Below are positions 4,676 to 31,763 of a DNA stretch of 32,000 bases, piece by piece (position 1 is the first letter of the stretch; each line of letters opens with the position of its first letter). Position numbers and translations under genes: made by a program. The DNA comes from Haloquadratum walsbyi C23 (lineage in GTDB: Archaea; Halobacteriota; Halobacteria; Halobacteriales; Haloferacaceae). Location of the stretch: the NCBI RefSeq assembly GCF_000237865.1, contig NC_017459.1, positions 1,110,001-1,142,000 on the forward strand, written 5' to 3'. Under the pieces are notes generated by a model that saw only the letters and a program-made list of their open reading frames with translations, ran no database searches and was not told the origin of the DNA.

Positions 4676-5203
4676 TTATCGAAACTCGTCTGGTGTGATC
4701 GTTTCGAGATACTCGACGCTGACGTACCGGAATTCGATATGGTCGCTGAAGCCATATTGAGGGAGAAGCATCTTTGCTGCCCGTCCCGCCGGTTTGTCGG
4801 TTGTCAAGAGAACAACGTGGTCTGCCTGCCCAGTATCGAGTACCTGAGCAGCAGGCCCCACGAGTGCCGTGTCAGCTTTTTCGATGATATCCTCGTCGCG
4901 GTCGGTCTCGTTGGCGATAACTCGCCGTGCGTCGTCCATCACCGTCGAGACGAGCGGATTGGCATAGTCGAGTTCGTCGGCGACGATGATCCACCCCTCC
5001 TCGAATCCATCGGGATAGGGAATGTTCCCTGAGGGGTACCCCTCGGCTGCAGGATCGCCCCCGAGCTCTTCGTAGACGCGCTGTGGAATACGCAACGAAA
5101 CACCAGCCTGTTGGAGGGTCCGACGGAGTCGTTGAAATTTATCCTTATCCGGTCCACCACACCGGACGAAGACGCCGGTATCAGCGATATAGACTGTCGT
5201 CAT
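4676..5203 (-). CDS. PIN-domain-like protein, downstream member of an HTH+PIN pair
   Basis: ATG start. N-terminal VYIADTGVF, then VYEEL, TDRDEDIIEKAD and LLTTDK give the spaced acidic residues expected for a PIN fold. Its ATG overlaps the stop of the upstream gene (ATGA at 5200-5203). Paralog at 9066..9434. Confidence 0.65.
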   Translation of the reverse strand: MTTVYIADTGVFVRCGGPDKDKFQRLRRTLQQAGVSLRIPQRVYEELGGDPAAEGYPSGNIPYPDGFEEGWIIVADELDYANPLVSTVMDDARRVIANETDRDEDIIEKADTALVGPAAQVLDTGQADHVVLLTTDKPAGRAAKMLLPQYGFSDHIEFRYVSVEYLETITPDEFR

Positions 5204-5736
5204 ACAACCGCGTCGGCGTACTCAGACACAACCGGTTCCAGCGCCTGAAGAATAATCTCGGCTTCAAGCGGTGAAAGATCAAGTTCCCGGGCTGCAATCC
5301 GGTGGTTGACCGTACCATCGACGTACTCGTAGGCGTACTTGAGCACGACAGCAAGACCGTCAAGACCGTGACGCTCAATGTAGACATCAATATCCTCATC
5401 CTCATCACGACGGGCAACGGCGGCGATAAGTGCAGGCGTGATTGTTTGGGTTTCTTTGTCCGTCGAGAGTGTGAGTGCAATCGACTCGGCGTCGTATTCG
5501 TACGGGCGCTGCTTACGGGTTTTCTCCACTAAGCCAGCTGCTTGGAGGTTCTGCACGTAGTCGTAGGCGGTCCCCTGTGGAATGCCGAGTTCGTTGACAA
5601 GCTCGGACACGGTGATTGGACCGTGCTGCAAGATGTGGGCGTACAGCCGAGAAAGCGCCGGCTTTTCGAGGAGGTCGGCGACCGTCTGAAGCTGCTGAAT
5701 CGGTGGTCGATCTGATCGGGACGGTGATTGCGCCAT
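5200..5736 (-). CDS. HTH (TrmB/ArsR-like) DNA-binding protein with a C-terminal extension, upstream member of an HTH+PIN pair
   Basis: ATG start. Contains LYAHILQHGPITVSELVNELGIPQGTAYDYVQNLQAAGLV (wHTH). It shares VADLLE.P.L..LYA, GTAY.YV, ITPALI.AV, DIDxYIxRHG and SPL.AE.ILQAL.PVV with the paralog at 9431..10030. Confidence 0.7.
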   Translation of the reverse strand: MAQSPSRSDRPPIQQLQTVADLLEKPALSRLYAHILQHGPITVSELVNELGIPQGTAYDYVQNLQAAGLVEKTRKQRPYEYDAESIALTLSTDKETQTITPALIAAVARRDEDEDIDVYIERHGLDGLAVVLKYAYEYVDGTVNHRIAARELDLSPLEAEIILQALEPVVSEYADAVV

Positions 5737-6112: not shown

Positions 6113-6682
6113 TTAGCTGAGCATAGAGGGTCGCGTTCGGATCACCGCCTTGATGCGGGACGGACATCCGTTAGCTGTTGACCTCGGCAGGCTCTGTCGT
6201 CGGAGCGAGGAAGTCCCATTCGCGGATGGCGAAGCCAACGATCTGGATACGTCGCTGAAGATGTCCCCACTCACGGGCAATACGTCGATGCTGGTCGTGT
6301 TGGGGTGGTTGAGGACGGCGCGGTACTGAATGCTGATGTCGACGTAGTGGGTTGGGTAGTGGTCCTGCTGAGATTCGTGATGCTCGCGAATCTCGAATTC
6401 GATGCCTGAACGGTCGGCAATCGTATCGAGGACCGCTCGGAGCTCCTGTTTGGACCCCCGGTACTCTCCTTCGACGTCAAAATCGAGGTCTTCCGAAAAT
6501 CGCCACGACTGCGGGAAATACAGCTTGGACAGCGCGGTCCCGCCTTTGAACAGGAGGTTGTCGCCGTAGCCGCTCGTGAAGATGCCCCAGAGGAGCCACG
6601 AATTAACGTAGTTCTTCTCGGCGTACCCTTGCCGAACGCCCAGTTCGCGAGCGAGAATCCGGAGCCGGTCCTGACTGATCAT
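6113..6682 (-). pseudogene. abiEii: AbiEii/AbiGii-family nucleotidyltransferase toxin, C-terminally frameshifted or truncated
   Basis: N-terminal 140 aa carry the family pattern: AEKNYVNSWLLWGI, LLFKGGTALSKLY and RFSEDLDFDV. After ...NTTSIDV the frame becomes low-complexity (SLASPSANGTSSLRRQSLPRS). At 189 aa it is shorter than my recollection of this family (roughly 250-300 aa). Confidence 0.7.
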
Positions 6683-6687
6683 CGCGA

Positions 6688-7161
6688 TCAGGACTCCGCC
6701 GGCTCCAGCATGGCTGGCTCGACGTTGATTCGGAGGCGATACGTACTGTCGGTCGATCCGGTGTCGGGCCGCGTCGGGTCCAACAGGGAGTACCCACTCG
6801 TGAACGACGCGACGAGGTCCTCGCGGGCGGGGAGGTCGATGCCGAGCTGGTCGGCGAGGTAGACGATCCGTTTGGTCGCAGCGCCGTTGTCGAGGCGCTC
6901 GAGGTACTCGCCGACAGTGCCCCAGTCACAATCCCGTTCGTCGGCAGTACGCATCGCAGTCGCAAGTTCCCGAAGGCCACCACAGAACTCGGGGTGGTCC
7001 GTACAGTCGACCAGCGTCTTCTCTAGGTCGCTGACCTGCACGGTCGTACCCTCGATCGAGGTCGGCTCACAGCCGAAGAATTTCTGCTCGGTGACTGTCG
7101 TGACGCGGTACGGGACGCCGTGGATCTCTCGGCTTTGTGTTCGGGTCGGCGTGACGACGCG
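6688..7161 (-). pseudogene. abiEi: AbiEi-family antitoxin, N-terminally truncated (no start codon; wHTH part missing)
   Basis: The frame is open from the in-frame TAG at 7162-7164 down to the stop at 6688. Translation: ...REIHGVPYRVTTVTEQKFFGCEPTSIEGTTVQVSDLEKTLVDCTDHPEFCGGLRELATAM... This matches the C-terminal domain pattern of AbiEi. It lies 5 nt upstream of abiEii. Confidence 0.65.
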
Positions 7162-7174
7162 CTACCAGCCGGAC

Positions 7175-7498
7175 TACACGCGCCTGCTCTTCGAGGAGAT
7201 CCGCACGCTCATTGAGGAAAACACCCGCGAGGAGCTGCGCAACGAATTGGCCGCGATCACCGAAGAGATCGAGGAGTGGCAGGCGACCTACGATGTCGAG
7301 ACGTGGGAAGAGCTCGAACAGTCGCTTGCTGATGGCCATCTCGCAAGTGACGAACTTCACGAACGCCGTGACGTGATTACACGCTGGGAAGAGAATCTGG
7401 AGGACCGTCGCCTCATCAAGCACGCGTTGGTGCTCTACTCGGATGTCGAAGCTGCTCGCGAGCAGATGAGGAACGTGGCTGACCGCGCCATGCGATAA
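7175..7498 (+). pseudogene. C-terminal fragment of a coiled-coil HTH-family protein, paralog of 7955..8467
   Basis: TRLLFEEIRTLIEENTREELRNELAAITEEIEEWQATYDVETWEELEQSL aligns with RVLMSRIRELREEVDRPELLDSIQEMKAEIRRYEDQYDVVSPEELAQQL of the intact paralog. The N-terminal HTH half is absent. Upstream in-frame sequence (6872-7170) is antisense to abiEi. Confidence 0.55.
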
Positions 7499-22608: not shown

Positions 22609-23472
22609 ATGGTTTCGCAGGCAGAGATCGATCGTCTCCGTCTGGAAGCAGATACAATTATGACGCGGTACCGACAGGTCGAAACAGCACTAAAAGAAGC
22701 TCGTTCGAAGTCCGGCGACCACTGGGAGACGGGTAAGTTGGTCGTGACACTCGACACACCCCACCAGGAGACGATCGAAATTACTCTCAATCTCAATTCT
22801 GATCCGGCAAGCAACGCCCAGTCACGATATGAGAAAGCGAAAGATCTCAAAACCGAACTTGAGCGTGAACGAGACATCGTCGGTCAGTTAGCCCCACTCC
22901 CCGTCACGCCTGTTGCCTATCTTATCTGCTACCATCTCAATGCCGTCGAGGGGAATTATCCACGGTCAATGGCTGGGCATCTCGATGCCCGGCGCGAGCA
23001 GGTTGACGAATTATGTAAGAAAATGGAGACGGCAGGATTGCTTGAACGAGTTGAGTCAGGAACTGTCAAACAACGCCGTGTCAAAGCCAAGCAGGCTGAT
23101 GAGGTTCGTCAACATCATACCTATTATCGACTGTCACGAGAGGGTGACCATCTCCTCCGATTTCTTGATGAACCCAATGGACAACAGAATGTCCTCCGGC
23201 ACCTTCCCGATGGACACACGCTTATTCAACGACTGGCGCGTGGCGGACCAGATTATCCACGGATGACCGCTGACGAACTGGATATGGAGTTCGAATATGT
23301 CCGCCATCTTTACCGCGCGCTTCGACAGGTCGGTCTCATCACTGAGTATGAGGGCTCTACAATCAAGGCGACCGAGCGAAAATTAAAGCCAAAAGACGAA
23401 ACCCATCGTAAGCATACTTACTACATCGTGACTGACCGTGGCGACGAAGCGTTCCGACGTTTAGAGGGTTAA
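22609..23472 (+). CDS. DNA-binding protein with an N-terminal coiled coil and two winged-helix (PadR/MarR-like) domains
   Basis: ATG start, 287 aa. There are two wHTH-like units ending in HHTYYRLSREGDHLLRFL and KHTYYIVTDRGDEAFRRL. The N-terminal ITLNLNSDPASNAQSRYEKAKDLK resembles the NFACT/FbpA linker motif (weak, by eye). Confidence 0.7.
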   Translation: MVSQAEIDRLRLEADTIMTRYRQVETALKEARSKSGDHWETGKLVVTLDTPHQETIEITLNLNSDPASNAQSRYEKAKDLKTELERERDIVGQLAPLPVTPVAYLICYHLNAVEGNYPRSMAGHLDARREQVDELCKKMETAGLLERVESGTVKQRRVKAKQADEVRQHHTYYRLSREGDHLLRFLDEPNGQQNVLRHLPDGHTLIQRLARGGPDYPRMTADELDMEFEYVRHLYRALRQVGLITEYEGSTIKATERKLKPKDETHRKHTYYIVTDRGDEAFRRLEG

Positions 23473-23848
23473 CATATCTCATGAGGCGTCCAATAATACT
23501 GTCTCGTGGCTTCGCATCAATTTTGAGATATTATGTAGTTGGACTCGAGCCTGTCAGATTAAAAAATTAGTTTAATTTTGACGCCGGAAGTGCATTGACG
23601 GTCCGGAAACGACTGGACTTTTCTCTTTATCGAGTACTTTCTTAACTAACCACTGTAATAGTAAAAAGAGTTAATTAATAGCTGTCCCTAATCATGATAA
23701 TATTAATATTAATATAATTTATCATAAACAGTCGCTGGTGAAGTATCTGTGTTGGCAATAGCCTTGATTTCGATACGCTCGCCTTGATTATTTGTAAAAT
23801 CGTATAATATGCCGTCAGGTATTATTAATTCTAACACATTAGATAACC

Positions 23849-24262
23849 ATGGGTATTTTAGTTGCAGTCAGCGATGATAATCAGTTCCAGACAGTTCTGA
23901 ACGTAGCAGTGGGGCTGGCTGATGGATTTAATGATGAACTGTATGTGACTCATATAACAGAAACCGAGAATGCATCCGGGGACGAGCGAGACTTTCGTGA
24001 TGAGATCCGTGAATCCCTCCCAGAGACGACCGTTTCCATTGATATCGGACTCGAGCATCTCAGCCGAAGCGGGCTCCGCTCAGGAACAGCGATTGGCAAG
24101 CAACTGGTTGAACTCTCAGAGAGCGCTGACATCGATCATATTGTAATTGGTCACCGCTCAAAAGGTCGATTGACTACCGCTCGTGAGGGACATACTGGTT
24201 TTGTCGTCGCCGATGAAGCAGCAGTTCCAGTGACAATCGTCCCTGAGGCAGTTGATTCCTGA
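23849..24262 (+). CDS. Universal stress protein (UspA family)
   Basis: ILVAVSDD...ALNVAVGLA-type N-terminus and a C-terminal DHIVIGHRSKGRLTTAREGHTGFVVADEAAVPVTIV (nucleotide-binding G-x2-G-x9-G(S/T)-like region). 137 aa. Confidence 0.85.
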   Translation: MGILVAVSDDNQFQTVLNVAVGLADGFNDELYVTHITETENASGDERDFRDEIRESLPETTVSIDIGLEHLSRSGLRSGTAIGKQLVELSESADIDHIVIGHRSKGRLTTAREGHTGFVVADEAAVPVTIVPEAVDS

Positions 24263-24743: not shown

Positions 24744-25514
24744 ATGAAGCGACGTATGCTGATTCGAACTGTTATCGGAAGTATTGCTGTCGGGAGCACG
24801 GCGGGTTGTATCCGCGCATTTCAATCTGATGATCAATCACCACCTCCACGCAAATCGAATATCATCCGTGATATCAGCGTCACAAATAGTGGTGAAATAA
24901 TCAAGGTAACAACTGCCCCAGACGAGTCACAGTGGGTGATGACTCGGCAAGAAATCGATGCTGCATCTTCACGCGCCCAGGTTGAGAATACTAACAATCA
25001 GATTAGTTGGCATCAACGTGCCATTGCGGAGGTTGATTCAGGACTGGACGCAGCATCTCCCATCGGGACAGTCGAAGCAAAAGGAAGAGGTGCAACCGGA
25101 AGAGGGCGCGGTGGATTCTCATCCGCACCGCGCACGTCGAATGGTCGTGCGTGGTACGGTGGTGGCGCATATGCAGCAACGTGGTATAATAACCACGATA
25201 ATGAAGTCTCTCGTGTCCCAGTCACGATCAATATGATTGGGATTGGATTTATTGGCGATAATGACACATTCACTGAACGGTCGATTGGACCTGGACCCAT
25301 CAACTGGGATACAACCTACAATGACCCGACCGGAGATATCCGATCTGATCTTAGTCCGCGGAGCGGATGGTACAGAGTCGGTGCGGAGGTCAATGCTGAA
25401 CTCGCCGGTGGTGGAACCCAACCTCTTGGATGGGAGTGCATTGATCTTCGTGTTCGATCCACTGGGAATGACGAAGAGATAACGAAGAAGTGGAAGGTAT
25501 CACCACGAATATAG
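24744..25514 (+). CDS. Secreted lipoprotein of unknown function (Tat-like signal plus lipobox)
   Basis: MKRRMLIRTVIGSIAVGSTAGC has twin Arg, a hydrophobic core and the lipobox TAGC. There is a Gly/Arg-rich central stretch, GRGATGRGRGGFSSAP...WYGGGAYAATWYNN. No family recognised. Confidence 0.7.
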   Translation: MKRRMLIRTVIGSIAVGSTAGCIRAFQSDDQSPPPRKSNIIRDISVTNSGEIIKVTTAPDESQWVMTRQEIDAASSRAQVENTNNQISWHQRAIAEVDSGLDAASPIGTVEAKGRGATGRGRGGFSSAPRTSNGRAWYGGGAYAATWYNNHDNEVSRVPVTINMIGIGFIGDNDTFTERSIGPGPINWDTTYNDPTGDIRSDLSPRSGWYRVGAEVNAELAGGGTQPLGWECIDLRVRSTGNDEEITKKWKVSPRI

Positions 25515-25638: not shown

Positions 25639-27468
25639 GTGAAGCGGCTCATAACCCCGTCGGCGCAAACCAGCCTACATACTATTACCTTCCTCGTTGC
25701 GTTCTGTAGTTTTACCTATGAACTTGCATACTCAGAGTTATTGACTGTGATGTATGGCGGGACGGTCACCCAGTACGGATTGACAATTGGTATTTTCTTT
25801 TCATCGCTTGGAATTGGATCTTATATCGCCAAACAGTTCGATGAAACCCGCCCTGAAAATGTCTTTCGCACTGAGCTTTATCTAGCGTTTATAGCTCCTG
25901 TTGGTCTGTTATTTATTATCTGGATCAATACGGCTGCACTGCCGCAGCTCCTTCCAGAGATACTGCTTGGATTGCTAGCTCGTCTTCCGGTCGTCGGGAT
26001 TGGCGTCTTATCAGGCTTCGAACTTCCGCTGTTACTTGCACTTGTCAATAATTTAGACTCACCCTCATTATCACCGGGAGTACGGCGAATAACGAATATG
26101 ACCGACCGAGTGATCAATACGATTATTGGAATATTATTTCATACATCTCACTCACGCAGTGAATATGACACATACTCTACAGTTCTTGCAATGGACTACC
26201 TTGGAGGGCTCATCAGCGCTCTGATTTATGTCTTCCTTCTGTACCCAAGCGTTGGACTTATTATCTCTATTTTCGCCCTCGCGCTGATTAATGTCGTTGC
26301 GGCTCTATTCTTTATTTGTCGATTTAGTTCTCGACCATGGGGAATTCTTGCCGAAGGCGACCGTGATATTATCACGAACGAACGAACAGTGTTGGTCGTA
26401 ATTACGATCGTGCTCACAGCAACACTCGGTGGAGCCGTTATCTCTCATCAAACAGTCGATAACACGCTAACAGAGTATTATCTTGAGGGGAACATAGAAC
26501 AAGAGTATCCGCCTGGGACCGTCGATGCTGAGATTACGACTCAGTTCACCACCCAATATCAACACGTCGTACAGTATAATCGCACTTGGAAGGGAAGTAG
26601 TTCGAATCCACTTTTTGCCGGGCAGACAGAGCGATGTCTCCGTCTTGATACAGCAATCCAGGTATGTGATAGTACAGCACGCCCATATCATAATGGACTG
26701 GTGGATGTCCCTCTCTCAATGTATCCAAACACTACAGATACTGATGTGCTTCTCGTTGGTGGCGGTGACTGGATTGCGCTTGATCACCTTCGTCAAGAGA
26801 ATGTTTCTGTTGATCATGTCGATATTGATGCAGAGTTCATGCAATACGCCAAAACGAATTCATTTCTCACAGAATACCACAATAACGCATATACTTACGA
26901 ACATGCAAAAACGTATCAGGCTGACATCTATGATTACCTGCAGCGGACAGATGCGCAGTATGATGTCATTTTGCTTGACCTGCCTGGTGCAAAGACTGAT
27001 GATCTGCTTCCGGTCTACTCGACACAATTCTATCGATTACTAAAGGACTCACTCACAGAAAATGGTGTTGTTGCGACATGGGGTTACTCGCAATACACAT
27101 ATTCATCTCATCAGAAAGCATACTTCAACACTGTCACTCAGGCAGGTTTCACCCAATATCAGTCATATTATGCATATGATGATTATACTGGCAATGGTGA
27201 GACTCGACGCGGAGAGTTATTTTATCTATTTGCCCCGGATTCATCACGACCGGTCATTACCCCTACGAATGGGACCCAGTATGTCAGAAAATATCAAGGA
27301 CAGTATCAGTCGAAGAAGTGGCGCTCAGTACCTACATATCGTGGCGTTAGACCGAATACGCTCTTCAATCCTAACTATGAGATTCTTATTGATACCCAGC
27401 GTAAGCAAGAATCAGCTTCAAATCGACTCAGTCGACTTCAAAACATGACACTATCAGATCTACTATAA
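25639..27468 (+). CDS. Polytopic membrane protein fused to a spermidine-synthase-like (aminopropyl/methyltransferase fold) domain
   Basis: GTG start. About 270 aa of hydrophobic helices (FLVAFCSFTYELAYSELLTVMYGG..., LGIGSYI...). Then LLVGGGDWIALDHL, VDHVDIDAEF, YDVILLDLPG and VYSTQFYRLLKDSLTENGV, which match the spermidine synthase motif order. The canonical GGGDG reads GGGDW here. Confidence 0.8.
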   Translation: MKRLITPSAQTSLHTITFLVAFCSFTYELAYSELLTVMYGGTVTQYGLTIGIFFSSLGIGSYIAKQFDETRPENVFRTELYLAFIAPVGLLFIIWINTAALPQLLPEILLGLLARLPVVGIGVLSGFELPLLLALVNNLDSPSLSPGVRRITNMTDRVINTIIGILFHTSHSRSEYDTYSTVLAMDYLGGLISALIYVFLLYPSVGLIISIFALALINVVAALFFICRFSSRPWGILAEGDRDIITNERTVLVVITIVLTATLGGAVISHQTVDNTLTEYYLEGNIEQEYPPGTVDAEITTQFTTQYQHVVQYNRTWKGSSSNPLFAGQTERCLRLDTAIQVCDSTARPYHNGLVDVPLSMYPNTTDTDVLLVGGGDWIALDHLRQENVSVDHVDIDAEFMQYAKTNSFLTEYHNNAYTYEHAKTYQADIYDYLQRTDAQYDVILLDLPGAKTDDLLPVYSTQFYRLLKDSLTENGVVATWGYSQYTYSSHQKAYFNTVTQAGFTQYQSYYAYDDYTGNGETRRGELFYLFAPDSSRPVITPTNGTQYVRKYQGQYQSKKWRSVPTYRGVRPNTLFNPNYEILIDTQRKQESASNRLSRLQNMTLSDLL

Positions 27469-27470
27469 TT

Positions 27471-27992
27471 ATGTCAGAAGAAGAACTATATCTCATCCAG
27501 TCGAAACACCCACACTCACTCGATGATATTGATATTAAAGCGACTCATGAAACATTGTTTTCTGCACACCCAGCAGAATTCCATATTATTGGAGAATCTC
27601 ACGCTGTAAGCGTTCCAGCACTTCCATTTTATGAAATTTTCTCCTGTCAGCCAATACGGACAGAGCAGGCATCAGATACGACAATCAACACGATTGAACT
27701 CTGTGTGGACACACGACTAAGTACAGTTTACACGCTCGGAGCTGAGCACACAAGTATTCAGACAACCGTCCGAATTGAGCCATTTGAGTCATTTCTAGAT
27801 GTAGGGTCGTTCACGATTGTATACAAATTCGATACAAACGCGTATACAGCAATCAACTGTATCTCACAACGGGAGTATCGAACCTATCATACATATCCTG
27901 AACACGATTTGACGGTTATTTCGTGTCATCAAATCTGTTCTGCATCGAATATAGAGTCGCGAGATATGATTGAAGCAAGCACACAACAATGA
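27471..27992 (+). CDS. Hypothetical cytoplasmic protein separated from the upstream gene by only 2 nt (possibly translationally coupled)
   Basis: The ATG is 2 nt after the upstream TAA (27466-27468). 173 aa, no signal peptide or TM segment, and no family recognised with confidence. Confidence 0.65.
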   Translation: MSEEELYLIQSKHPHSLDDIDIKATHETLFSAHPAEFHIIGESHAVSVPALPFYEIFSCQPIRTEQASDTTINTIELCVDTRLSTVYTLGAEHTSIQTTVRIEPFESFLDVGSFTIVYKFDTNAYTAINCISQREYRTYHTYPEHDLTVISCHQICSASNIESRDMIEASTQQ

Positions 27993-28029: not shown

Positions 28030-30201
28030 ATGAACTGCCAATATACAGCTACCCCAGAAAAAAGCCAATTCTCATCATTGACAGCCATGTGGTCGTGTCC
28101 ACACGAGTCTCATCAAGAGGGCGAACACTGTGTCTTTCATATGACTCCTGAAGAACGGAGACACCACGATATTACACCACAGGATATTCATGCTACACTT
28201 CTCTCCGAGTTAGAGGCTGAAGCAAATGATAAAAAGGAGTTTATTGGGGCGCACATCCCATATCTTGATCTTGATTATATCGATGTTGAGACAGACAATC
28301 AATATCCACTCGACTTTCGACATACAACAATCAAAAACGGAATTTCGGCTGCTCACGCACGGTTTGAGGAACGCGTTGACCTTCGGAATAGCACTGTTGG
28401 TGGCTTACATGCGCCGAACTGTGAATTTGAAGACGGATTACTTGCCTCTAAGACGGTCTTCACTGATGTGGTCACCCTCTCTGAGACGGTTTTCAATGGT
28501 GATACCGTTGACTTCACCGATACGACCTTTGAGCAGTCCCTCGTATGTGAAGAAATAACAGTTGCTGTTGATATGTTCTTCGAGCATGCAGAATTCAACG
28601 GTCGTGTTTCATTTGATGGTGCATGGTTTGCTGAACAGGCAAGCACGATTGATGACAATACTATCTTCAATCATGCAATCTTTCATGATATCGCATCATT
28701 CAAACATACGTCATTTTATTATACGGCGTTTCAGGATGTTACATTTTATGACATGACCACATTTAAACAAGCCACGGCAAACGGTACAATCCGATTGAAT
28801 GGATCAACATTTCACGCTGCTGCTGATTTCGATGAGTTACACTGTGAGGAGGACATCTCCTTTGGTGACGTCGTATTTCATGGAAAAGCCTTCTTCAGAG
28901 GGGTGTCGGTTATTGGGGGCGCAGACGTGCTTGCAGATGACTTCTCATTAGCGAATACCAGATTTAATGCGGAGACCACCTTTGAACGCGGAACATTTGG
29001 ATTCACAAACGCAGAAGATGCAAAATTCAATGCGTGCGTAAACTTCGAACGGAGTACGTTTAGCGATGATGCAGATTTTGTTAATACCACATTTGCTGAC
29101 ACAGCTGATTTCGATGAAGTGATTTTCGACGGCGATGTTGCATTCACAAATACTACCTTCGACGCGGACGCTGTCTTTCGAGGTGCTGAATTCAACGGGG
29201 GGACGAATTATATTGAATCTGATGCAGTTTTTAATAATGTTACATTCACTCAAAAGGCTGATTTTAGCGATACGGACATCGTTTCGATTGAATTTAATCG
29301 AACTGAATTCCAATCGGATGTTGATTTCACTGACGCTGAGATTACTGAGACATTCATCATTGAGAATCCGGTGTTCGTTGATGATCCATATCTTGATTTT
29401 ACTGATGCAACAATTGAGGAGGGAACAATTATGCAACCAAATCGTGGATGGGGACATTTTGACTTTACGCAAGCAACAGTCGGCGATGTTCTACTGACGG
29501 CGGCTGACCAAGTTGATAGACGAGAGCTGCTTGATTACTTTCGTTTCTGTGACACGACATTCGACACATTTGATTTCTCACAGCATCTTGAGTATCTTGA
29601 TCGAAACAATTGGGTTCTTCATACTTTTGCTCACCCAGAGACTGAATTCACACCAGCACTCGAACTCACACCAGCACGAATTGAGAAGACGTACTTAAAA
29701 GCGAAATCAAGTGCCTCAGCACAAAGCAACATCAAGGCTGCTGGTGAATTTCGGGTAAAGCGACAACAATATGCACGGAGAAAGTTCACTCAGATTGCAG
29801 CCGATTCTGCAGAACCAATTCGAACACGTATCAGAAACGGACTTCGGACAGCAGAGAATCTATTTCTTGAGTTTTCCTGCGGGTATGGACTCCGGTTGTA
29901 CCGAATTACTACCGTGTTCATACTGGTTCCACTGATAGCCGCGATTTTGTTCACTTTTGCTGGACCGCTATTCGAGACTAGTGCCGGGCAGGCTTCACTT
30001 TCCCAAGCATTGAACGCGACCGGTACTCGCACGCTTCTACTCAATGTATACTTTTCATATATCACATTTCTCACAATCGGATATGGTGGCATTGGTCCAC
30101 TCGGTCTTGGGGCTCGATTCCTTGCTGCAATTCTTGTTTATCTTAATGTAATTTTGGCTGGACTCTTCATTTACTCCCTAATTAAACGGAGTGAAATTTA
30201 G
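28030..30201 (+). CDS. Pentapeptide-repeat protein with an N-terminal Cys/His motif and a C-terminal 2-TM potassium-channel pore domain
   Basis: N-terminus WSCPHESHQEGEHCVFH. About 350 aa of A(D/N)F-type pentapeptide repeats (e.g. ADFDEVIFDGDVAFTNTTFDADAVFRGAEFNGG). The C-terminus has TM1 (ITTVFILVPLIAAILFTFAGPLF), a pore helix plus filter YFSYITFLTIGYGGIG (TIGYGG at nt 30073-30090) and TM2 (FLAAILVYLNVILAGLFIYSLI). Confidence 0.85.
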   Translation: MNCQYTATPEKSQFSSLTAMWSCPHESHQEGEHCVFHMTPEERRHHDITPQDIHATLLSELEAEANDKKEFIGAHIPYLDLDYIDVETDNQYPLDFRHTTIKNGISAAHARFEERVDLRNSTVGGLHAPNCEFEDGLLASKTVFTDVVTLSETVFNGDTVDFTDTTFEQSLVCEEITVAVDMFFEHAEFNGRVSFDGAWFAEQASTIDDNTIFNHAIFHDIASFKHTSFYYTAFQDVTFYDMTTFKQATANGTIRLNGSTFHAAADFDELHCEEDISFGDVVFHGKAFFRGVSVIGGADVLADDFSLANTRFNAETTFERGTFGFTNAEDAKFNACVNFERSTFSDDADFVNTTFADTADFDEVIFDGDVAFTNTTFDADAVFRGAEFNGGTNYIESDAVFNNVTFTQKADFSDTDIVSIEFNRTEFQSDVDFTDAEITETFIIENPVFVDDPYLDFTDATIEEGTIMQPNRGWGHFDFTQATVGDVLLTAADQVDRRELLDYFRFCDTTFDTFDFSQHLEYLDRNNWVLHTFAHPETEFTPALELTPARIEKTYLKAKSSASAQSNIKAAGEFRVKRQQYARRKFTQIAADSAEPIRTRIRNGLRTAENLFLEFSCGYGLRLYRITTVFILVPLIAAILFTFAGPLFETSAGQASLSQALNATGTRTLLLNVYFSYITFLTIGYGGIGPLGLGARFLAAILVYLNVILAGLFIYSLIKRSEI

Positions 30202-30256: not shown

Positions 30257-31222
30257 ATGAGCAATGCCCACGAACATGACTTCACTGGAGATATCACACT
30301 CAATGGAGGTGAGGAAACGCCGATTTCAGTTATCGATGCTGAAAATGTCTATTTTCGACGAAACTCGGTCACTGGAAATGTTAAACTCATCAATCCTGAA
30401 TACGTATTTTCATCTCAGAGACCAACCGAAAAAACCGTGCCGTCAGATGACATAGAGACCACTGTTAGTGGGTCAATCGAGGATATATATGTTCCACACA
30501 ATGCAATCGAGGGGACCATCATCATTGATGGCGCACAAGATGTGCACATCGAACCAAATGCAATAACTGGTGATATTGAAATTGTTGGAGAAGAGCAACT
30601 CTTCTATAATCAACTCACAGACTCGCCATATGGACACGGCGTTTATGATGCGCATGGCGTTGGCTGGAAGCGATCAGTGTCTGTGTCCGATCCCAAACAC
30701 GGTGTCAGTGTCACTGGTGGGCGATGCACCGCAGAAATAACTGATGTAACGGCAGATATCGAACTGATTGTATCTGGTTGGAACAATACCATTGATATCA
30801 CTGGGCGAACAGCAATGGTCACGGTCTATTTACTTGGATCGCAAAACACCGTGAGGACAAGTCCATATATCGATCTTGAAACAGACATACAGGCTGGCGT
30901 CGAGAATACCATCGAACAGGAACCAGTTCCTGCCAGTGATATCATCGAGACGACCAGAAAGGAAGCATATGCTGGTCACTTACTGGGACGAGACACCGTT
31001 ACTTTTCAGGAGCCAGCCACAGACAGAGACTACTGCCCAAACTGCGGTGCGAATGCAAGCGCTATCATCACTCGCCGTCAAGAGGATGCACTTTTTCTTA
31101 CCAACACCCCTGTCTACCGATTCGATGCTGGAGGAAATTCATATGAATGTGAAAACTGCTCGGTTAACGCTACCCCAGACATACAGTTGTCTGAGGAGGA
31201 ACGTAAACGAGTCTTAGGTTGA
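30257..31222 (+). CDS. Hypothetical protein: beta-helix-like repeats plus a C-terminal CxxC...CxxC zinc ribbon
   Basis: Repeated x-(T/E)G-(D/N/T)-(I/V) strands: FTGDITLNG, SVTGNVKLI, AIEGTIIIDG, AITGDIEIVG. There is a DUF3060-like block, VTGGRCTAEITDVTADIELIVSGWNNTIDITGRTAMVTVYLLGSQNTV. Then CPNCG...(33 aa)...CENC. Confidence 0.7.
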   Translation: MSNAHEHDFTGDITLNGGEETPISVIDAENVYFRRNSVTGNVKLINPEYVFSSQRPTEKTVPSDDIETTVSGSIEDIYVPHNAIEGTIIIDGAQDVHIEPNAITGDIEIVGEEQLFYNQLTDSPYGHGVYDAHGVGWKRSVSVSDPKHGVSVTGGRCTAEITDVTADIELIVSGWNNTIDITGRTAMVTVYLLGSQNTVRTSPYIDLETDIQAGVENTIEQEPVPASDIIETTRKEAYAGHLLGRDTVTFQEPATDRDYCPNCGANASAIITRRQEDALFLTNTPVYRFDAGGNSYECENCSVNATPDIQLSEEERKRVLG

Positions 31223-31292: not shown

Positions 31293-31763
31293 TTATTCAA
31301 GCAGAAGAAAACTCACTCCACCAATCACTGCACTGACAGTGGTCAATATCAGCGTCAAAACGATACCCAATCCGAAGAGAGCAGGAGCGAACGTAAGCCC
31401 AAAGATAAATCCGATTAATGCACCAATTCCTGTTGCTAACACCGGTGATCCACTCTCAGTCTTTGCTCCAATACCCGACCCAGCAGCGACACCTCCAATC
31501 CACGTCAGTGGAATCGGGATTACTCCAGCGATGAGTGCTCCAATAAACATGAGGCCGGCAAGGGCAACAGCACTGGAAGAACTATTCCCTTGATTTGTTT
31601 TTGAACTGATCATATTGAATGTTCGCTTGAGTAAGCCAGACCAACTACTGCGGTCTGAAACTGGTTGTGGAGACACCCGATACCCTGACTGTGAACGTGA
31701 ACTCCCCCCAGTATCATTACTGTCTGTTGTTTTCGTTTGTTCTTTTTGTCGCTCTTTACTCAT
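31293..31763 (-). CDS. Small membrane protein with glycine-zipper-type helices
   Basis: ATG start. Polar Ser/Thr-rich N-terminus, then AVALAGLMFIGALIAGVIPIPLTWIGGVAAGSGIGA... and GIGALIGFIFGLTFAPALFGLGIVLTLILTTVSAVIGGVSFLL. Convergent with the cluster to its left. Confidence 0.6.
   Translation of the reverse strand: MSKERQKEQTKTTDSNDTGGSSRSQSGYRVSPQPVSDRSSWSGLLKRTFNMISSKTNQGNSSSSAVALAGLMFIGALIAGVIPIPLTWIGGVAAGSGIGAKTESGSPVLATGIGALIGFIFGLTFAPALFGLGIVLTLILTTVSAVIGGVSFLLLE

Follow-up and report, generated by a model that had tools for sequence, protein, structure and literature searches.

A probable K+ channel subunit with a cytoplasmic pentapeptide-type beta-helix, and the conserved gene set beside it, in Haloquadratum walsbyi C23

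We analysed a stretch of 32,000 nucleotides (nt) from Haloquadratum walsbyi C23 (contig NC_017459.1, positions 1,110,001 to 1,142,000 of the forward strand), referred to here as the window, and in particular one gene near its end. The encoded protein of 723 amino acids (aa) consists of a Cys/His motif, a pentapeptide-type beta-helix, a helical linker with a basic collar, and a C-terminal pore with two transmembrane (TM) helices, in this order. The features of the gene, in window coordinates, are the following.

28030-30201, + strand: complete gene, 723 aa plus stop, for a probable pentapeptide-repeat K+ channel subunit; a single ATG-started open reading frame (ORF).
28036-28140, + strand: Cys/His motif C3...W21-x-C23-P-H25...C34-x-F-H37, a putative zinc knuckle recognized by conservation, its metal binding being presumed only.
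28237-29502, + strand: pentapeptide-type beta-helix, aa ~70-491 (~420 aa), net charge -59, from Pfam, AlphaFold2 and Foldseek.
29503-29892, + strand: non-repeat helical linker module, aa 492-621 (~130 aa), from AlphaFold2 and conservation.
29893-29958, + strand: TM1, the outer helix, aa 622-643, from AlphaFold2 and a hydropathy peak at 621-650.
30016-30090, + strand: pore helix, aa 663-682, and filter T682-I-G-Y-G-G687 (filter at 30073-30090), from AlphaFold2 and conservation.
30106-30195, + strand: TM2, the inner helix, aa 693-722, from AlphaFold2, hydropathy (687-719) and conservation.

The protein is 99% identical to HQ_1921A of Haloquadratum walsbyi (CAJ52049.1, UniRef Q18IW6) and has about 80 full-length homologues at 35-84% identity, those that are named all coming from Halobacteria. 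Because these homologues in other Halobacteria exist and share an invariant filter, the ORF does not reflect chance. Most of them carry precomputed matches to both Pentapeptide_3 and Ion_trans_2 (PF07885), and public databases already label the architecture as "potassium channel family protein" or "pentapeptide repeat-containing protein". An earlier, sequence-only reading of this DNA had proposed the order of Cys/His motif, pentapeptide beta-helix and KcsA-type two-TM pore, and this order is borne out by Pfam, AlphaFold2 and Foldseek. A literature search returned no paper on the family of the window channel, nor on HQ_1921A or Nmlp_2848.

Residue conservation was counted in an alignment of 54 haloarchaeal homologues. 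All 54 carry the filter residues T682, G684, Y685 and G686; the pore-helix residues S676, Y677, I678, T679 and F680 are near-invariant, and the residues of TM2 are invariant or nearly so; the position after GYG is occupied by G, N or D. The Kyte-Doolittle plot contains just two hydrophobic segments of membrane-spanning grade, aa 621-650 and 687-719. The protein ends one residue past TM2, with a conserved terminal K-R-S-E-(I/V/L). Thus, the placement of TIGYGG at nt 30073-30090, between two hydrophobic helices at the extreme C-terminus, was exact in the sequence-only reading, and the motif is conserved among homologues. In a phmmer search, the filter stretch aligns with the TVGYGD of the KCNT1 pore. 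A profile of the C-terminal module (A3) retrieved the pores of TOK1, KirBac3.1, Kv1.3, KCa3.1 and NaK from the PDB with expect values (E) of 2e-7 to 1e-4. The homologue P0112 scores 28.8 bits against Ion_trans_2.

Structure prediction gave the same picture. AlphaFold2 monomer models were built for the full-length protein (predicted local distance difference test score, pLDDT, 88.2; predicted template-modelling score, pTM, 0.77) and for aa 391-723 (pLDDT 90.9, pTM 0.81), and both agree on the linker, TM1, a pore helix running into the filter, and TM2. The filter thus follows a pore helix and is re-entrant between TM1 and TM2, as in KcsA, to which Foldseek aligned the last ~100 residues with a TM-score of ~0.6 and a root-mean-square deviation (rmsd) of 3-5 Å over ~100 columns; KirBac3.1 and Kir chimeras were also matched. 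A search of a viral structure library returned Kcv-type pores and nothing else. Since a basic collar precedes TM1 and K-R-S-E follows TM2, the positive-inside rule suggests that both the N- and the C-terminus lie in the cytoplasm. Taken together, these data make it very probable that the gene product is a K+ channel subunit whose pentapeptide solenoid lies in the cytoplasm.

The TM1, pore helix, TxGYG and TM2 elements are those of KcsA, KirBac1.1/3.1, the MthK pore and viral Kcv. Unlike these minimal channels, the window protein has no RCK domain, Kir beta-sandwich or KcsA C-terminal bundle, which leaves the ~620-aa N-terminal part to supply all of its regulation, and the residue after GYG is not a fixed D in its family.

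The beta-helix is matched by Pfam Pentapeptide_3 in seven stretches with 114 bits (cut-off 27; E = 2.8e-33). AlphaFold2 builds a regular solenoid of short strands over aa ~70-491, with pLDDT mostly above 90, and Foldseek matches it to EfsQnr and MfpA. The repeats noted from the sequence are therefore real, although their extent had been put at ~350 aa and the model gives ~420. The proposed repeat unit, A(D/N)Fxx, did not hold as a strict pentad, because 5- and 6-residue steps alternate along the phenylalanine ladder: the autocorrelation of Phe peaks at lags of 5, 11 and 22 and reaches 0.22 at lag 5, against a maximum of 0.14 in 1000 shuffles. The resulting period of 11/22 departs from the 20-residue coil of classical pentapeptide proteins. 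Many Phe rungs are invariant across genera, among them F213, F239, F289, F333 and F361. The soluble pentapeptide proteins MfpA, Qnr/EfsQnr, Np275/276 and Rfr32 share with the window protein the Pentapeptide_3 match and the beta-helix of the AlphaFold2 model, whereas the window protein is membrane-anchored, ~2-4 times longer and has the 5/6 instead of the strict 5 spacing of Phe. MfpA and Qnr are DNA mimics; for the window protein, no sign of DNA mimicry or of an interaction with gyrase was seen. The resemblance to KCTD9, in which a K+-channel-related oligomerisation module (BTB/T1) occurs with pentapeptide repeats, is one of domain vocabulary only, that protein being a soluble, poreless cullin adaptor.

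The solenoid is not joined directly to the pore; the conserved linker of aa 492-621 lies between them, with AlphaFold2 helices at 494-503, 516-525, 548-564, 568-591 and 597-617. Within it, aa 548-621 form a basic collar of 15 K/R residues with a net charge of +9, in a protein whose overall net charge is -61. The collar residues K559, R575, R578, R583, K585, R600 and R606 are kept in 49-54 of the 54 homologues, and in the closing segment, C617-G-(Y/H)-G-x-R622-L-x-R625, residues C617, G618, G620, R622 and R625 are present in all 54.

At the N-terminus, AlphaFold2 places a small beta element (aa 1-30) and helices (40-69). The heart of the Cys/His motif is CPHESHQEGEHCVFH (aa 23-37, nt 28096-28140), in a region modelled as short strands with pLDDT 78-89. 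The residues C3, W21, C23, P24, H25, C34, F36 and H37 form an all-or-none set, of which 29/54 homologues have every member and the others have none, so the element that the sequence-only reading had singled out is real and conserved, though optional. Reading upstream of the match, we found it in 23/45 loci, and it is also present in 44/150 representatives of the wider family described below, some of which are without the K+ filter. The motif may plausibly bind a metal. The RefSeq model (P0011) has 686 aa and starts at M38, which removes the motif; the conservation of the motif in different genera shows M1 (28030), the start given in GenBank, to be the right one. A tie between the motif and the gene cluster described below was rejected, since channels with and without the motif occur both with and without the cluster.

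To define the wider family, an exhaustive HMMER search was made with aa 455-723 (269 aa: the last solenoid turns, linker and pore). At E ≤ 1e-3 it returned 580 clusters (50% identity), of which 227 also reached E ≤ 1e-10. The phyletic distribution of the family, with at least 580 such clusters, takes in archaea and bacteria. The linker-pore module is C-terminal or nearly so in the representatives listed, whose proteins range from ~180 to 1500 aa. Among 61 sampled members, 59 matched Pentapeptide_3 and 37 matched Ion_trans_2 at E ≤ 0.001. Of 150 representatives, at least 80 have a filter of the form T-[IVL]-G-[YF]-G and ~60 carry a degenerate "SFxTLVLGG" loop. The degenerate-filter members (P0180, P0182, P0191, P0195, P0210, P0222 and others; ~40%) retain the solenoid and collar and often the Cys/His motif; judged from the sequences, they may form a non-selective or non-conducting sub-family. 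A compact form of ~303 aa is frequent in metagenomes, in housekeeping-like contexts. A search of plasmids supplied the only bacterial examples with a name, a gene on a Nostoc plasmid and an ORF of Aeromonas. The latter, in an unannotated part of the record of Aeromonas caviae KAM479 (locus L053, 3578-4540), is a 320-aa short form that starts with C..HC..CRWH, analogous to the Cys/His motif of the window protein; this is followed by pentapeptide repeats over ~80 aa, the linker of the family, CGYGE and TLGYGD. It is flanked by a response-regulator/TPR gene and by an ORF whose translation resembles exonuclease III (xthA); no nucleotidyltransferase (NTase) gene lies near it in this locus.

A precedent for the way in which the N-terminal part might act came from the structural comparison. 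When aa 391-723 were searched against the PDB with Foldseek, the sole match with E below 1e-3 was 9nyi_A, HalA in complex with oligodeoxyadenylate (oligo-dA), with E = 3.1e-5 and a probability of 1.00 over 353 columns covering 333 residues on each side. HalA was also the top match of the full-length model, and the remaining matches to aa 391-723 cover the pore alone. According to published summaries of the work of Tan et al. (Nature 2025), HalA, whose PDB entry 9nyi was released in May 2025, serves as effector in Hailong, an anti-phage system, and is a tetrameric channel with a cytoplasmic crown (PMC13434031); the crown binds oligo-dA, a 5-nt molecule at each subunit interface, and controls opening (PMC13434031, PMC13276650). 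The same papers describe synthesis of oligo-dA by the partner nucleotidyltransferase HalB, opening without oligo-dA as predicted by modelling, and depolarisation of the cell with Na+ inflow when HalA is expressed alone (PMC13434031, PMC13276650). A Hailong-like effector with pentapeptide repeats and a K+ channel (IRK) domain was tested in a 2026 paper (PMC13586616). In view of these reports, experiments have already been made on a K+-channel-type pore with a crown of the pentapeptide type, and the description of such a gating module as uncharacterised, given by the sequence-only reading, is outdated.

HalA and the window channel both combine, in one chain, a beta-solenoid, a helical linker and a C-terminal two-TM K+-channel-type pore, and neither has a regulatory part other than its cytoplasmic N-terminal assembly. 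They differ in length (333 aa for HalA and 723 aa for the window channel, whose beta-helix is several times longer) and have ~10% identity in the structural alignment. The canonical K+ filter is invariant in the window clade, while reports on HalA speak of an inflow of Na+ with depolarisation; moreover, the window channel has other partners in place of the HalB NTase and carries the N-terminal Cys/His motif. HalA was rejected as a detectable sequence relative, since the linker profile A5 does not retrieve it even at E ≤ 10 and it is absent from the 60 best matches of profile A3, which are all K+ pores, and from the 60 best of the Aeromonas short form, both lists being longer at E ≤ 1. We regard the relationship as one of likeness in build: the two proteins share an architecture and may work alike, which does not establish membership of Hailong.

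The genes on either side of the channel gene form a conserved set. In the window, the four neighbours on the same strand are the following.

24744-25514, + strand: DUF8229 protein, 256 aa, a putative lipoprotein with a lipobox-like KRR...AGC N-terminus; PF26682 was matched on the orthologues from L001, L002 and L005.
25639-27468, + strand: membrane-fused SpeE-like aminopropyltransferase homologue, 609 aa, with Pfam Spermine_synth at aa 349-504.
27471-27992, + strand: DUF2617 protein, 173 aa, Pfam PF10936 (23.6 bits, cut-off 22.3).
30257-31222, + strand: soluble 321-aa protein with a beta-rich N-terminal part and a C-terminal CxxC...CxxC zinc ribbon, the proposed channel partner.

The gene order is therefore DUF8229, SpeE-like, DUF2617, channel and 321-aa zinc-ribbon protein. 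Against NCBIfam PRK03612, the SpeE-like protein scores 194 bits, below the cut-off of 472. The 321-aa protein has no informative match in Pfam, NCBIfam or the PDB; its N-terminal part is internally repetitive, and weak DUF3060 and Zn_ribbon_15 matches were seen.

Synteny was scanned in one genome per species, giving 43 channel loci, all from Halobacteria, with neighbours identified by tblastn using the window proteins. All four neighbour genes are present in 25/43 loci, and remnants of them in one more. In each of the 25 cluster-bearing loci, and also in L001, L005 and L052, the ~320-aa gene adjoins the channel gene on the same strand; depending on the locus, it either follows or precedes the channel gene. 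At least four layouts were seen for the triad of DUF8229, SpeE-like and DUF2617 genes: it may be co-directional with the channel gene, either upstream or downstream of it, or it may be inverted, downstream in Halorientalis and Halomicrobium and upstream in Haloarcula montana. Because the linkage between channel and cluster has been kept through at least four rearrangements, it points to a functional connection, beyond inheritance alone. The five-gene set is also found in Natronomonas moolapensis and Halovenus rubra, and the channel with its adjacent co-directional ~320-aa gene and the triad recurs in Natronomonas, on a JGI contig and on plasmid pHV3 of Haloferax (Hfx.) volcanii.

The pHV3 copy belongs to a more distant paralogue group that keeps the cluster on megaplasmids. 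It comprises genes for a 241-aa protein, a "spermidine synthase", a 174-aa DUF2617 protein, a 323-aa protein and a 767-aa pentapeptide protein. The last of these, HVO_RS01710 (WP_004041187.1; L052, 6926-9229), has 767 aa, the Cys/His motif and a TVGYGD filter. HVO_B0357 occupies the position orthologous to the window SpeE-like gene. It has been described as seven N-terminal TM helices joined to a SpeE homologue that is without the putrescine-binding residues, in a paper that poses the role of haloarchaeal SpeE homologues as a question (PMC5178350); its active site is reported to be conserved (PMC6267482). The window protein retains a G-G-G-D-W motif of the type reported for HVO_B0357 in the latter paper. 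A search of the literature returned nothing on HVO_RS01710 or on the other neighbours of HVO_B0357, and the haloarchaeal five-gene arrangement was not found described in the literature searched. What is new here is thus the conserved haloarchaeal gene set beside the channel, which we found undescribed in the searchable literature, the architecture itself having been catalogued already.

Similar genes keep company in bacteria. Ravi et al. (PMC11237479) described operons in which a SpeE-like protein fused to 7TM is encoded together with DUF2617, predicted to be a beta-sandwich enzyme, a lipoprotein of the DUF4247 type and DUF350, and a related bacterial operon carries a ligand-sensing K+ channel (PMC11237479). 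Their PspA-associated and PspA-less operons resemble the haloarchaeal cluster in uniting genes for a membrane-fused SpeE-like protein, DUF2617 and a putative lipoprotein, with linkage to a K+ channel. They differ from it in that the haloarchaeal lipoprotein is DUF8229 and not DUF4247, the channel is of the pentapeptide type, and the ~320-aa zinc-ribbon protein is added; no DUF350, DUF4247, PspA or AdoMetDC was found among the window neighbours. Overall, the haloarchaeal cluster looks like a counterpart of the bacterial SpeE-like/DUF2617 operons.

Other genes in the window were also inspected. Upstream lie DUF2250 and Usp genes (22609-24262, + strand) and downstream a gene for a Gly-rich 156-aa membrane protein (31293-31763, - strand). 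They stand beside the cluster almost solely in Haloquadratum, with a weaker Usp-like match near the Haloarcula montana cluster (L035), and for this reason they are probably outside the system. Between ~2000 and 12000, the window has a GC content of 56-62%, against 42-49% elsewhere, and only short ORFs. This stretch holds a truncated AbiEii-type nucleotidyltransferase toxin (6113-6682, - strand), a TrmB/DUF7437 regulator (5200-5736, - strand) and a DUF7342 protein (6872-7498, + strand). It looks like a decayed foreign island, unrelated to the channel more than 20 kb away; its identification as an rRNA operon was rejected, as no Rfam or tRNA match was found.

Based on these observations, we propose that the window protein is a K+ channel gated via its pentapeptide crown and coupled, through a partner or a ligand, to the orphan SpeE-like system. 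We assign this composite reading a probability of about 0.6. As is general for pores of this kind, the channel subunit would assemble as a tetramer, its N- and C-terminus both being cytoplasmic. Four beta-helices and their collars would then form a HalA-like crown below the pore, under the inner-helix bundle, and whatever binds to this crown or to the collar would decide whether the crown keeps the gate at the inner helices closed or open. Since the protein has no RCK domain, voltage sensor or C-terminal tail, the N-terminal assembly is left as the sole candidate gate. Candidate ligands would be anionic for the collar (lipid head groups, nucleotides) and cationic for the acidic solenoid (polyamine-like molecules). 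From the gene context, the direct binding partner may be the co-directional ~320-aa zinc-ribbon protein, and the source of the signal may be the envelope module formed by the DUF8229 lipoprotein, the 7TM-fused SpeE-like transferase and the DUF2617 enzyme. K+ flux would thereby be tied to the state of the envelope or membrane, or to a small cationic or aminopropylated product, and the coupling would mirror that of the bacterial PspA/polyamine-type operons with a ligand-sensing K+ channel. We put forward the SpeE-like module as a gating input only tentatively. The more specific version, in which the product or activity of the 7TM-SpeE-like/DUF2617/lipoprotein module gates the crown, directly or via the zinc-ribbon protein, is doubtful and less likely still.

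Several observations weigh against this proposal. With regard to the pore, Ion_trans_2 scores 20.0 bits over aa 667-718 of the window protein, with a cut-off of 22.5. With regard to the crown, the match to 9nyi_A has a TM-score of 0.44 and an rmsd of 8.4 Å, the linker profile A5 retrieved nothing from the PDB even at E ≤ 10, HalA included, and HalA was not among the 60 best matches of profile A3 or of the Aeromonas homologue. The geometry of tetramer and crown is inferred, because the models are monomers, and the strong negative charge of the solenoid may simply be a halophilic adaptation. With regard to the coupling, the channel occurs without any of the four neighbours in 17/43 loci, so its link to the cluster is facultative and the channel can work alone. 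Deletion of HVO_B0357 in Hfx. volcanii gave no phenotype, and halophiles are without AdoMet (S-adenosylmethionine) decarboxylase and spermidine (PMC5178350).

The best surviving alternative, which we nevertheless consider improbable, is a K+ channel gated by lipids in the Kir/KirBac manner. The collar would act as a slide helix that senses anionic lipids, and the beta-helix would be a non-gating spacer or scaffold that could dock the 321-aa protein or reach other cytoplasmic structures. Such a channel would explain why amphipathic, K/R-rich helices lie immediately before TM1 and why KirBac3.1, TM1 included, is among the best matches in both sequence and structure; in the family, whose proteins have 300 to 1500 aa, the beta-helix is also of very different lengths, in contrast to the constant collar and pore. 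A spacer, however, would hardly need every Phe rung to be kept across genera or a beta-helix in 59/61 members, and HalA provides a precedent for a crown of this kind that can gate a channel.

The resemblance to HalA raises another alternative, namely that the window protein is a Hailong-like abortive-infection effector. A nucleotide or oligonucleotide bound to the crown would keep the channel shut, and loss of this signal on infection would open it and arrest the cell. HalA being the top and only significant full-length structural match speaks for this, as do the conserved basic collar, which could bind a polyanion, the patchy distribution of the family with many members on haloarchaeal megaplasmids, and the ~60/150 representatives without a K+ filter, which would fit a depolarising effector in the style of HalA. 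The gene context speaks for something else: the neighbours are SpeE-like, DUF2617, DUF8229 and zinc-ribbon genes, and no NTase gene adjoins that of the channel, be it in the window or in the related contexts examined. The sole NTase-like ORF in the window is the AbiEii fragment at 6113-6682, ~21 kb from the channel, in the GC-rich island. Furthermore, no homologue of the haloarchaeal alignment departs from the canonical K+ filter, the bacterial short forms sit in housekeeping contexts, and no sequence similarity to HalA was found in the profile and homologue searches described above. PADLOC, whose library lacks Hailong, gave no match for the channel or its neighbours except the SpeE-like protein, on which we noted a weak "mad2" methyltransferase-type match (25.8 bits). 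With no PADLOC match on the channel and no NTase adjoining its gene in the contexts examined, assignment to a defence system was rejected, and we judge a Hailong-like role to be even less probable than lipid gating. The weakest alternative, a DNA-mimic or scaffold pentapeptide protein for which a pore-like hairpin, degenerate and non-conducting, would serve as a mere membrane anchor, draws on the DNA mimicry of MfpA and Qnr, on MfpA being among the Foldseek matches, on the sub-threshold Ion_trans_2 score and on the family subset with a degenerate filter, but it is very improbable given the significant profile match to K+ pores and the near-invariance of T-x-G-Y-G, pore-helix and TM2 residues in the 54 homologues, which a passive anchor would not keep.

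With respect to its significance, HalA, a defence effector, is the only similarly built channel that has been studied, whereas the family of the window channel is much larger and distinct in sequence, and most of its members retain a canonical K+ filter. Should the crown gate the pore, as we propose, this would be a widespread and unexplored control of K+ flux. Haloarchaea hold molar intracellular K+ (the "salt-in" strategy), and because of this a regulated K+ channel bears on their osmotic and membrane-potential homeostasis. The linkage to an orphan membrane SpeE-like system provides a concrete hypothesis with an assayable output, K+ flux, and the system is genetically tractable because the model haloarchaeon Hfx. 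volcanii carries the cluster on pHV3. If true, gating by the SpeE module would define a new class of signal-gated K+ channels in Halobacteria, and it would provide the first functional read-out for membrane-fused SpeE homologues in organisms that lack decarboxylated AdoMet and spermidine.

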